Virus record (IMG/VR): IMGVR_UViG_2778261151_000016
Span: 1 to 16,033 of that record
Length of the DNA stretch: 16,033 nt
From: a virus
Taxonomy: Duplodnaviria > Heunggongvirae > Uroviricota > Caudoviricetes
Reading direction: 5' to 3' (one strand)
In this document: piece by piece, positions 6,001 to 9,000 of the stretch
How the letters are laid out: each line of letters starts with the position of its first letter
Position numbering within the stretch: the stretch's first letter is position 1
Position numbers: made by a program

Positions 6001-9000
6001 CTTTAAAAGCTGTGGTATGGGAAGACATTAAAAAAAACGATGACGAGTTTGTCGCATTGCCTCTTCTTAACGTTTCGCTTTCGGCTGGAAGCGGTAGCTG
6101 CGAGATAGAAGAATCATCAGAGTTCTCTTTGGTTTTCAGAAAGTACTATCTGAAAAAGATGGGGGTAACTGAAAGTTCTGCCAAGCTGGTAAGGGTAACA
6201 GGTCAAAGCATGGAACCAACTCTTCACGATGGCGATGTTGTTGGTGTTAACACACAAGATACCACCATCAGAGATGGTAAAACCTACGCTATTTGCCAGT
6301 CTGATTTGTTGCGAGTAAAAACATTAATCGCCACTCCTACATCGGTGATAATCAGATCAATAAATCGCGAAGAGTACCCGGATGAAGTAATGGATAGAGA
6401 TGAATTTCATAAAACCGTAAGGATTATTGGCAGAGTATTCTGGTCATCGCATAGCTGGTAACCAGTGGCCTGAAGAAACGTTTGGGTGAGGAGGATAGAT
6501 GGCGTTCACTGACCTTGAATATCAAGCGGTCAAAAAAGAAGTTCACCAATTCATTGAAAGCATAAGGCCGCCTGAACATATCCGCAATGAACTGGATATT
6601 GTTTATAGCATCAATGACCAAACGATAGATATCGGCGAACAGCGCCCCGTGTGGCAGGGCAACCCAGGTGAAACAAACATCCTGCCATCAGCAAGAATCA
6701 AGTACATACGTTCTCTGGATAGATGGAAAATCTATTGGATGCGGAAGGATATGAAATGGCATCAGTACAGTACTGAACTTTCGCTGACTGATGCGCTTGA
6801 GCTTGTGCGTGCTGACCCGGATTGCTGCTTCTTCGGATGAGTGAAGAGACATTTTGGTGATGGATGGTCGCAGAAGTGCGGCCTTTAATGTAATCGAAGA
6901 AAAGTAATCCTTGTAAAACTTGATTTGACTGTATTGTCACAAAGAAAGGAATCAACGATCGTTTCTTGGGTCTTGATTTGTTTTGACGATCAAATTAGTA
7001 TTGCCTCATCAACTGTATGAGGCTTTTTTATGCAAACCAAAAGCTACACCATCAAAGCATTTCAGGACTTCTTACAGATGCTTCCTGAGCTTGGTATCGT
7101 CAATGATGCTACAGCCCGCAATCTCCGTGACTCTTCCCTGCGCCTTCTTACTGTTCTTGGGTCGGATTTCACCGATGCCGATATCCGTGATTATAGCGTT
7201 GCCAACTTAGCAAGTTCGTACGCAGACTCAGCAGAAAGCAAACCCTCTGAATCATCTTTGCAGGCATACAAAAGCCGAATGCAAAGTGCTATTGATAAAT
7301 TTATCTCCTACCAGAATGGTGAGATTAATGTGTCAGTTGGTGATGTAAATAAAAAAAAGGAGCGTAAAAAGATGGCACCTAAGAAGAAGGCGGTAGCTGA
7401 CGTACAGGTTGGTGTAAAAACATTTGAACTGCCGATTCCATTGCGCGGAGATCTTATCGTCACCATTGGCAACCTGCCTCGCGACCTGACAAAAGATGAA
7501 GCCAAGCGTATCAGTCTGATTGTGGAATCTTTTGCGATGATTGATGGCGGAACAAAAGAATAAAGCCCCGAGGGAACGGGGCTTTTTGGGTCGGAAATAT
7601 ATCCAGTATTTCCGAAGTGTATGGAGGATTACCTACCGCTACACCCTTGGCAACCGCAAGCCAAGGATAGCGGTTCTCCCAACAAACTACAACCTGTTCG
7701 GGTAAACAGGCTGTATACAAAAACAGGAGAAAAGCTATGGCTCACGATGTTAATCGCGATGACTTCATCTACGAACACGACAAGCCGGTTTATGTGCGCA
7801 GTTACTGCCGCATACGTTTCGGTGAGCTCGAACATGTTCGTCAGCACTTCCGCTCTTATCCGAGCTGCTGAAAATAACTAAATCTCAAACCCGGCTTCCG
7901 CGCCGGGTTTTCTTTGCCTCGCGATCGTCCCCCATATTTAACAGCCGCAAATGCGGTAAACCACGAACCAACACGCCAGCAATACAGCGCCCCCCTTCCA
8001 ATACCGACCAATCCGCAACATTTACAAAAATAAAATACCTTTATTATCCATCACTTATAACTTATTTATCAGAATTCATGAATTAAGTTATTGATCACCG
8101 CTATAACCTAGGTTATCTTTAAGCCATCAGCAGGACGCACTACTCACCAGGGCGGTGAATATACAACGATTCGAATATGAATCTACGGCGCTGACAAAGC
8201 GCAATAACCAAAGTGAACTTTGGGGTGTGGTGAAGGGTTCATGGACGGGAATATGTCGCACGTAAAGCGGCGAGGCCTGCGGGACTATTGCCGAATTGAA
8301 GTAGGCCGAAACAGGTCAAAATGGGTCTCCCACCTACCACACCACCAAAGTTCATCAGGAGGTCTATATGACACGCAGAACTCAGTTCAAAGGCAATTCA
8401 CGTTCTCGTCGTCGTGAGCGTTTAAAGGCAAAGGCATTAGCTAACGGCGTGCTGGCCCGCGAAGAAGCAATAAGTTCAGAAGTATTACACCGCCCTACTC
8501 TAAGCAGAGCGCAGATTCAGGCTAAAGGTACTCACGAAACGCCTGAGCGCATAGAAGACGCTAAGCCAATTAAGTTCATGGCACAGGACGTGATCTGGCA
8601 ACAGAAAGAATACAGACGCAATCTGGAGCGAGCGGCCATTGTGTACGCGAATGAGTTTGGACATAAGCAACCAGAAACTGGTGTATGTCTTCCAAACGTA
8701 GCCATTTACGCGGCAGGCTACCGGAAATCAAAACAACTGACAGCGAGGTAATTATGGATTTAAATAAATTAGAAGCGTTATTAGAAGCATCAGTAAAAAA
8801 TTTTATCTCAGTACTTGATGAAAAAACTGAAGATATTAAGAAGGCAAATATTGTCGAACTTGTAAAAACAAGAGCCAGTACATTTGATCATCTTCCTGAT
8901 GATGTCCGGTCAGCGGCAATTCGCGTATATGTAACGGCACTAAGCAATAGTGAACCACCAATTGATGAAGAATCAAGAGATATTCAGAAAAAACGGTTTG

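Follow-up and report, generated by a model that had tools for sequence, protein, structure and literature searches.

A promoter-embedded hairpin as a probable RNA-level insulator of a mobile gene cassette in a lambdoid prophage

The stretch of DNA analysed here (the window) comprises positions 1 to 16,033, i.e. 16,033 nucleotides (nt), of the IMG/VR virus record IMGVR_UViG_2778261151_000016 (Caudoviricetes), a lambdoid, Stx-phage-like prophage. Directly in front of one of its genes, open reading frame (ORF) B, lies a hairpin whose 3' arm carries the Shine-Dalgarno (SD) sequence of that gene. It appears that this hairpin is an RNA-level insulator belonging to a mobile two-gene cassette (about 6940-7920), a reading to which we assign a probability of roughly 0.65. 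Transcripts that enter from upstream, such as the PRM- or PRE-derived mRNA of cI and the adjoining DUF3024 gene, would carry both arms, and in such read-through RNA the CCUC of the 5' arm would pair with the SD sequence GAGG and make ORF-B untranslatable. In this lineage the stem and the six U residues behind it would probably also end part of the read-through transcripts right where ORF-B begins. The predicted sigma70 promoter of the cassette (6973-6978 and 6996-7001), by comparison, would initiate at about A7008, within the 5' arm. The mRNA made from it would lack the anti-SD, form neither the occluding stem nor the terminator, and be translatable. No promoter other than this one would then determine the expression of ORF-B, whatever the site to which the cassette has moved.

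The elements of this arrangement are as follows; homologous loci are designated by L numbers throughout.

6973-6978, plus strand: -35 hexamer TTGATT of the predicted ORF-B promoter, invariant in 17 diverged homologue upstream regions.
6996-7001, plus strand: -10 hexamer TAGTAT after a 17-bp spacer, ending 1 nt before the hairpin; TAnnAT is kept in the aligned homologues, with TACACT in L062.
7003-7009, plus strand: 5' arm GCCTCAT with the anti-SD CCTC, its pairing kept with compensatory changes; predicted to be largely untranscribed from the cassette's own promoter.
7007-7010, plus strand: predicted transcription start A7008, 7 nt past the -10 hexamer and within the 5' arm, placed by its spacing from the -10.
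7010-7016, plus strand: loop caactgt, variable among homologues in sequence and in length (3-16 nt).
7017-7023, plus strand: 3' arm ATGAGGC, including the SD sequence GAGG (7019-7022), the best anti-SD duplex at most 20 nt from the ATG.
7024-7029, plus strand: U6 tract, doubling as the SD-to-AUG spacer; found in the window clade and not in L026, L038 and L020.

Stem and loop can be read directly from the sequence, and the hairpin described in an earlier sequence-only reading is real, although its stem begins at 7003 and not at 7004, 1 nt too high. The T6 run directly 3' of the stem abuts the ATG at 7030-7032. As had been supposed, the GAGG of the 3' arm, 7 nt from this ATG, is the sole SD-like element and thus the only plausible ribosome-binding site (RBS). 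The start codon itself is confirmed by the absence of an in-frame start further upstream and by the N-terminus MQ(T/S)K, which is kept in the homologues. A terminator scan picks up the hairpin independently (7 pairs, 4 of them G-C, loop of 7 nt, tail TTTTTTATGC), as one of 11 terminator-like sites between 5000 and 8500, compared with 3.5 +/- 1.7 in shuffled sequences. Taken from the window sequence alone, the hairpin stands only weakly beyond chance: a 56-nt segment folds at -10.1 kcal/mol (z = -1.4), a value also attained by 15 of 200 shuffles. The cost of opening the SD in read-through RNA, 9.7 kcal/mol, is in the top 1.6% of the 2644 window positions sampled and exceeds the cost at 17 of the 18 other gene starts in the window. 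The only other gene start with an equally high cost (10.0 kcal/mol) is that of a transposase-like ORF (HTH_Tnp_1) at 156-797 on the minus strand; its start codon is putative, and the value is in line with self-protection of the insertion sequence (IS) type.

When the window was scored with a position weight matrix of sigma70 base frequencies, TTGATT-17-TAGTAT ranked third among about 96,000 placements. The same matrix picks sites where they are expected for PL (8091, plus strand), PRM (5718, plus strand) and PR (5704, minus strand). No rival candidate was found between the DUF3024 gene and the hairpin (6800-7030), the best alternatives scoring 7.3 and 6.6 versus 10.5. Of the promoter originally proposed, the -10 hexamer at 6996-7001 stands, but the -35 hexamer lies at 6973-6978 rather than 6974-6979 and the spacer measures 17 bp rather than 16. 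The spacer is 17-18 bp in all homologues, and the hexamers are kept while the spacer sequence diverges; more distant, hairpin-less homologues have -10 variants of the form TAnnnT (TATATT, TACATT, TATGCT). Since a single nucleotide separates the -10 from the 5' arm in all hairpin-bearing homologues except that of Yersinia phage YP3 (L002), the predicted start falls inside the arm and the anti-SD would be removed from the transcript. A C-A-T/A triplet is present at the predicted +1 distance in 13 of 16 homologues. The idea that transcripts start inside the hairpin agrees with this placement, and diverged homologues have retained the promoter, its spacing and the hairpin as a set. Control of the promoter by CI is not indicated, because it has no 8-mer in common with the OR or OL regions of this phage. 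Candidate CI/Cro operators occur in both of these regions (5640-5760 and 8030-8135, respectively) as elements of the ACTTATAAC/GTTATAAGT type and as ACCTTTATTAT. Two promoter-like sites were also seen on the minus strand. One, at 6955-6928 (TTGATT-16-TACAGT), ranked 5th in the window; the other, at 7040-7012 (TTGGTT-17-TACAGT), ranked 11th, and its -10 is the complement of the hairpin loop. Being unconserved outside the window clade, the loop-borne site may be due to chance.

The two kinds of transcript differ in the predicted accessibility of the SD. We compared SD opening energies, as the mean unpaired probability over -15 to +3 is dominated by the U-tract and therefore uninformative. An RNA starting at 7007-7009 requires 5.0 kcal/mol, which is 4.7 kcal/mol less than the read-through RNA; across the hairpin-bearing homologues the difference ranges from 1.3 to 11 kcal/mol. 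The proposed sequestration of the RBS in read-through RNA, and its avoidance by transcripts from the gene's own promoter, thus hold in silico. Both cI and the DUF3024 gene are co-directional with ORF-B, and the stem-loop at 6866-6883, a poor terminator-like structure, is all that lies between them and the hairpin in the way of a stop signal. Twelve hairpin-bearing loci have an ORF of at least 70 amino acids that ends no more than 900 nt upstream; the nearest such ORF is likewise co-directional in 11 of these, whereas L022 has only minus-strand ORFs in this interval. A tracking of the hairpin with a co-directional upstream gene was considered and rejected, as the hairpin-less loci L055 and L057 also follow co-directional genes. 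The uncoupling of ORF-B from the repressor operon, proposed at the outset from the window, is largely supported by the comparative evidence given below. Computation shows the anatomy of the site, the conserved and covarying stem, the conserved promoter and its position, the mobility of the cassette and the difference in energy between the two RNAs; the ends of the transcripts, read-through out of the repressor operon, the efficiency of termination and the effect on translation are inferred.

Homologues of ORF-B, gathered from IMG/VR, metagenomes, genomes and assemblies, number about 50 at cluster level and are found in the Enterobacterales and their phages; a scan of genome contigs contributed only 3 of the loci. 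An alignment of the upstream regions made with MAFFT misplaced the 3' arms of different clades and was replaced by a covariance-model alignment together with a hand-anchored pair table. The model was built from six window-type sequences and recovered 17 distinct instances. At about 50-90% protein identity the common architecture consists of cTTGATT, 17-18 bp, TAnnAT, 1 nt, a 5' arm (G/A/T)CCTCAT..., the loop, a 3' arm ...ATGAGG(C/T/A) that includes the SD, 4-7 nt and the ATG. The arms pair in 93.2% of cells in the 17 distinct upstream regions, compared with 31-55% when the 3' partner is slid. Two pairs of the stem show double-sided changes, and the covariation score and paired fraction are reached by none of 500 shuffles. 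The outermost pair is A-U (7 sequences), G-C (6) or U-A (1), and the second pair is C-G, U-G or G-C. According to the hand-anchored table, extra pairs lengthen the stem clade by clade, with C-G on the outside and A-U, AAG/CUU, CAA/UUG or UGG/CCA on the inside, and loops of 3 to 16 nt occur. Where one side of a pair alone has changed, the change is mostly C-to-U in the 5' arm and leaves a G.U pair in the sense RNA. These compensatory changes, clade-specific extensions, variable loops and sense-strand G.U pairs argue for selection on an RNA stem in plus-strand transcripts, and with the homologues taken into account the stem is clearly beyond chance.

Some relatives have the promoter and lack the stem. 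In L055, L057, L059, L060 and L041 the promoter and the 'CAT' are kept, whereas the discriminators are unrelated and the anti-SD is absent, which suggests that the CCTC is no promoter requirement and is there to pair with the SD. A distant group of homologues (about 39% identity, VT2-Sakai H0093 among them) has another upstream region with a strong AAGGAGG, in which a conserved anti-SD stem was not seen by eye; the device would thus be specific to one clade of the family. A scan of IMG/VR for the promoter plus the 5' arm gave 117 matches, in which a complementary 3' arm occurred only before ORF-B homologues, the rest being at chance level. Four of the hairpin-less loci (L055, L057, L041 and L043) contain a conserved (TT)ACCAYTTTGGT(AA) palindrome at about -95 from the ATG, followed by a T-run in L055 and L057. 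This palindrome may provide the insulation in their case, as a distinct terminator or binding site further upstream.

Several observations weigh against an insulating function. The fold of the hairpin in the window alone is not significant (z = -1.4), and a simple consensus scan missed the promoter, which matches at 8 of 12 positions where the threshold was 9. Constraint on the SD keeps the four core pairs from covarying, so that the covariation is limited to the outer two pairs, the G.U changes and the clade-specific extensions; moreover, the alignment was fitted to the structure by the covariance model and leans towards it. The predicted contrast between the two RNAs is moderate, since the promoter-initiated RNA must still spend 5.0 kcal/mol on opening the SD. 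The terminator score d, calculated with a d'Aubenton-Carafa-type formula and present-day energy parameters, is borderline (about +6) and is positive only for the window clade. Finally, the stem is degraded in some homologues (L004, L187) and absent from the more distant same-promoter homologues L055, L057, L059, L060 and L041, which indicates that the device is dispensable; two stem-less homologues likewise follow a cI or DUF3024 gene that is co-directional with them.

The order of genes on the plus strand is cI, the DUF3024 gene (ORF-A in the earlier reading), ORF-B, an ORF of 44 amino acids, the PL-like promoter at 8091 and N (8368-8751); cro, cII and the replication genes are on the minus strand. 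Features around the hairpin are:

5754-6840, plus strand: cI (5754-6461, S24 peptidase and helix-turn-helix (HTH) domains by Pfam) and the DUF3024 gene (6499-6840, Pfam), downstream of the PRM-like site at 5718; presumed source of read-through.
6866-6883, plus strand: hairpin GGTCGCAGAAGTGCGGCC after the DUF3024 gene, with a poor T-tail; a mosaic junction, homology to 933W-type phages ending at 6884.
6919-6993, no strand assigned: putative regulatory region recognised by motif enrichment, with CTTGAT (6919-6924, 6972-6977), ATCAA (6951-6955, 6989-6993) and GATC (6957-6960, 6988-6991).
7030-7563, plus strand: ORF-B, 177 amino acids; N-terminal four-helix domain, Lys-rich linker and conserved C-terminal beta-beta-alpha unit.
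7564-7587, plus strand: stem AGCCCCG/CGGGGCT with T5 after ORF-B; 100% paired in 12 homologues, the U-tract not being conserved.
7588-7736, plus strand: intergenic RNA in front of the small ORF, conserved and predicted from fold and covariation to be highly structured.
7737-7871, plus strand: basic, non-hydrophobic ORF of 44 amino acids (MAHDVNRDDFIYEHDKPVYVRSYCRIRFGELEHVRQHFRSYPSC), PHROG 21154, of uncharacterised function.
7887-7916, plus strand: predicted terminator CCCGGC/GCCGGG with TTTTCTTT, serving the 44-amino-acid ORF at the right end of the cassette.

Over positions 6400-7700 the window matches Escherichia phage SH2026Stx1 at 99.5% identity and prophages of a few E. coli genomes at 99.8%; the PGAP annotation of a strain with the latter identity supports the calls of cI and the DUF3024 gene. 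The full region is present in only 6 of 5426 complete E. coli genomes. Homology to ORF-B loci elsewhere spans about 6940-7920, from about 90 nt above the ATG to the terminator after the 44-amino-acid ORF, its right end lying at about 7910-7927. The contexts in which this unit of about 980 bp and its control region occur are unrelated: immediately behind cI in prophages (of Serratia, among others) that differ in their immunity regions, after the DUF3024 gene, after a dinI-like gene next to pepN (Salmonella, Enterobacter), beside a divergent dam gene, and near gin in phage YP3. The 44-amino-acid ORF accompanies ORF-B at all homologue loci with downstream gene calls except L054, L060 and L061, which suggests that the two genes form one mobile unit. 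By these comparisons ORF-B would not be native to the repressor operon but the first gene of a mobile two-gene cassette that carries its promoter and hairpin along. Phage lambda carries rexAB in the interval between cI and N, and 933W has L0083-stk-L0081 and tM there in the place of ORF-B. The cassette also fits the description of a moron as an independent transcription unit: it has its own predicted promoter and terminators (7564-7587 and 7887-7916), and it is present or absent among related phages. The difference in G+C content from the neighbours that marks a moron is lacking, there being no step at the cassette (0.41-0.48 across cI, the DUF3024 gene and ORF-B). Morons are known to carry their own promoter and terminator (PMC3594210). 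The nature of the cassette as such a unit would also explain why selection favoured an insulator that travels along and guards against transcription from outside.

The hairpin had been described as terminator-like, and its stem (7 pairs with 4 G-C, loop of 7 nt, about -9 to -10 kcal/mol) does agree with the usual demands on an intrinsic terminator, i.e. a G+C-containing stem of at least 5 bp and a loop of 3-8 nt with a U-tract directly 3' of it (U6, 7024-7029). Termination is therefore plausible here, but the stem is of only limited stability and its U-tract has been lost elsewhere: intact stems are followed by CGUUCA in L026, UAUCAU in L038 and UUCUAU in L020, and an ideal U-tract is limited to the window clade (the window, L053, L182 and L186, the last with U7). 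Because the U-tract was lost in lineages that keep the stem, we take sequestration of the SD in read-through RNA as the conserved function, and termination as a plausible additional role confined to this lineage. The same observation bears on the possibility that the hairpin is merely the intrinsic terminator of the cI-DUF3024 (PRM) operon, a counterpart of lambda t_imm, whose overlap with RBS and promoter is incidental. In favour of this, the hairpin lies downstream of these co-directional genes, the one right after the DUF3024 gene (6866-6883) has only a poor T-tail, and the scan did list the stem with its U6 as conforming to the consensus. Yet the hairpin moves with ORF-B and not with cI or the DUF3024 gene, being found also after dinI and in YP3, while 933W has the same DUF3024 module with other downstream genes and its own tM. 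In addition, the SD is invariably carried by the 3' arm and, YP3 (L002) apart, the -10 borders on the 5' arm throughout. We consider this explanation unlikely.

An improbable alternative, too, is that ORF-B is transcribed from a start upstream of 7003, so that the hairpin lies within its own 5' untranslated region and controls translation of this mRNA as a riboregulator, for which temperature, a small RNA or a protein might be the opening signal. A conserved stem that sequesters an SD has the look of such elements, and the start at A7008 is a prediction. However, the region 6800-7002 contains no other promoter candidate of comparable score (7.3 and 6.6 versus 10.5), and in the hairpin-bearing homologues other than YP3 (L002) just 1 nt separates the conserved -10 from the stem. 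A search of positions 5000-9000 against Rfam at E <= 1 gave no match. RNA thermometers typically contain mismatches, whereas this stem has four G-C pairs and lacks such mismatches.

The inverted repeat might also work as DNA, namely as a palindromic operator at +1 to which a regulator binds as a dimer; ORF-B, with its recombinase-like DNA-binding domain, would be one candidate. In favour of this, the repeat covers the predicted start site, other repeated motifs abound in the region, the fold of ORF-B resembles those of DNA-binding proteins, and parallel changes in both half-sites could mimic covariation. A distance between the arms that varies from 3 to 16 nt is, however, ill-suited to a fixed dimer, and the C-to-U changes in the 5' arm keep the G.U pairing of the sense RNA yet break the symmetry of the DNA. 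One arm is moreover fixed by its role as SD, and the repeat has no similarity to the OR or OL operators of this phage, so that we hold an operator to be quite improbable. That a G+C-rich discriminator is complementary to the SD by chance and has no function, as the single-sequence z-score of only -1.4 might suggest, is hardly credible in view of compensatory changes across clades at 50-90% protein identity, clade-specific stem extensions and the unrelated discriminators of same-promoter homologues that lack the hairpin.

As an RNA-level insulator, the hairpin follows a design already known from the lysozyme gene of T4 and from IS10, here apparently conserved in a mobile prophage gene cassette; the mechanism as such would be no surprise to a specialist. 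In T4 the design has been established experimentally for e, soc, 49, I-TevI/II/III, segB and mobE (PMC3014915, PMC2988022). Early read-through transcripts of e form a stem over the RBS, whereas transcripts from the late promoter lack the 5' strand and are well translated; in relatives of T4 the late promoter is kept in the region encoding the 5' strand (PMC3014915, PMC2988022). As in e and I-TevI, the SD of ORF-B is predicted to be base-paired only in the long upstream RNA, the promoter lying within the DNA that encodes the 5' strand and so omitting it from the transcript, and the structure is conserved in 17 sequences. The T4 genes, however, are under temporal control by gp55-dependent late (or middle) promoters in a lytic phage, whereas ORF-B would have a sigma70-type promoter in a prophage cassette beside the repressor operon. 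Unlike the stems of T4, that of ORF-B is followed by a U-tract, and its mechanism is deduced from sequence.

The second group of comparable systems consists of mobile elements. In IS10 and IS50, pairing within read-through RNA occludes the translation start, and the weak promoter of the element itself starts downstream of the inhibitory strand. This fold-back inhibition reportedly protects IS10 from external promoters (Davis, Simons and Kleckner are said to have described it in 1985). ORF-B resembles the transposase genes of IS10/Tn10 and IS50/Tn5 in its predicted shielding from read-through. The transposase promoters of IS10 and IS50 are Dam-sensitive (PMC4265352), and there are conserved GATC sites in the promoter region of ORF-B as well. 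In contrast to these elements, the GATC sites of ORF-B lie outside the hexamers, no antisense RNA is evident and the cargo is no transposase. IS elements encode a transposase and have terminal inverted repeats; ORF-B has no transposase domain, and the cassette would work like an IS element without being a member of that class. Its cargo differs from the T4 and IS cases in being neither a transposase nor a lysis or homing gene. IS200 has a terminator that guards against impinging transcription and a stem that sequesters the SD (PMC4513863), and 5' terminators ('mobile attenuators') upstream of transposase genes block expression when an IS lands in a transcribed region (PMC2965389). In IS200, though, two structures share these tasks, a terminator at nt 12-34 and an SD stem at nt 69-138, of which the latter belongs to the mRNA of the gene itself, whereas a single hairpin would do both jobs in front of ORF-B and be bypassed by the cassette's own promoter.

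With respect to its location, ORF-B is similar to lambda rexB and to morons between cI and N: it is found downstream of cI in the immunity region and has its own predicted promoter. In lambda, the internal promoter pLIT allows rexB to be transcribed independently of PRM. We know of no RBS-sequestering, promoter-embedded hairpin for rexB, and ORF-B is unrelated to Rex or to the Stk of 933W. If our interpretation is correct, insulation by a start inside a hairpin extends to a horizontally mobile cassette of temperate lambdoid prophages, where it is conserved with covariation and where one stem would serve to sequester the SD and, in some lineages, also to terminate transcription. The expression of such cargo genes could then not be inferred from the operon that houses them.

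The region upstream of the promoter is rich in short repeats. In the 150 nt preceding the ATG of the homologues, CTTGAT/ATCAAG is enriched about 20-fold and GATC about 5-fold. The CTTGAT/ATCAAG motifs are partly arranged as TTGAT-N11-ATCAA across the -35 and the spacer. GATC recurs at -73/-74 and at about -42 from the ATG (here at 6957 and 6988, 31 bp apart), and these positions hold even in the distant group whose upstream region is otherwise unrelated. In the window, the GATC at 6988-6991 falls in the spacer (about -20 to -17) and that at 6957-6960 above the -35, the hexamers themselves containing none. The enrichment of both motifs suggests a Dam/SeqA-sensitive control or control by a dedicated regulator.

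The ORF-B protein belongs to PHROG 2602, which is functionally uncharacterised. It had no significant match in searches of Pfam (sub-threshold CagZ only), PADLOC, NCBIfam and PDB sequences, and none at E <= 0.001 in a Foldseek search of BFVD. An AlphaFold model built with 27 homologues has a confident four-helix N-terminus (predicted local distance difference test 80-94), a disordered Lys-rich linker and a small conserved beta-beta-alpha unit at the C-terminus. The model suggests a DNA-binding protein with a domain resembling the core-binding domain of recombinases. The earlier view of ORF-B as a tightly gated toxic effector finds no support in this, since no recognisable toxin is present, although the protein may nevertheless be toxic.

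Between ORF-B and the 44-amino-acid ORF, positions 7586-7740 fold at -58.4 kcal/mol (z = -6.3), the minimum free energy structure making up 48% of the ensemble. Across 12 homologues the 33 pairs of the fold are 88.8% paired; 11 pairs show double-sided changes, which none of 500 shuffles reach. A conserved AUAGC..UUCUCC box pairs with the SD GGAGAA and the GCUAUG start of the small ORF (76-80% paired), and the RNA appears to sequester the SD and AUG of this ORF. Positions 7586-7740 have no Rfam match and contain no sigma70 promoter, and they represent a candidate new structured leader or non-coding RNA. We tentatively add a wider reading, which we regard as rather doubtful, in which the hairpin is one layer of control in a previously undescribed, self-contained mobile module (about 6940-7920) in the 'exclusion' slot of rex and stk. 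Its five parts may be the GATC/CTTGAT-studded promoter, the insulating hairpin, the DNA-binding protein, the covarying RNA of about 150 nt and the basic protein of 44 amino acids. If so, the module would be a doubly gated, methylation-marked unit of two genes plus an RNA and could represent a new defence or regulatory system encoded by prophages, possibly sensing DNA methylation or the state of replication. At the least, an uncharacterised cassette of two genes and a structured RNA is hereby flagged in a slot of the immunity region that often holds phage-exclusion genes.

Two other genes of the window may be mentioned. The DUF3024 gene (6499-6840) has about 97% nucleotide identity to L0084 of 933W and is assigned by PADLOC to the candidate defence family PDC-S43 (E = 7e-42). 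On the minus strand, 949-3855 encodes a replication protein of 968 amino acids in which Toprim and AAA_25 are interrupted by Hint and LAGLIDADG homing-endonuclease domains; the product is probably an intein-containing primase/helicase. Phage SH2026Stx1 and strain F8704-2 have different replication modules at this position.

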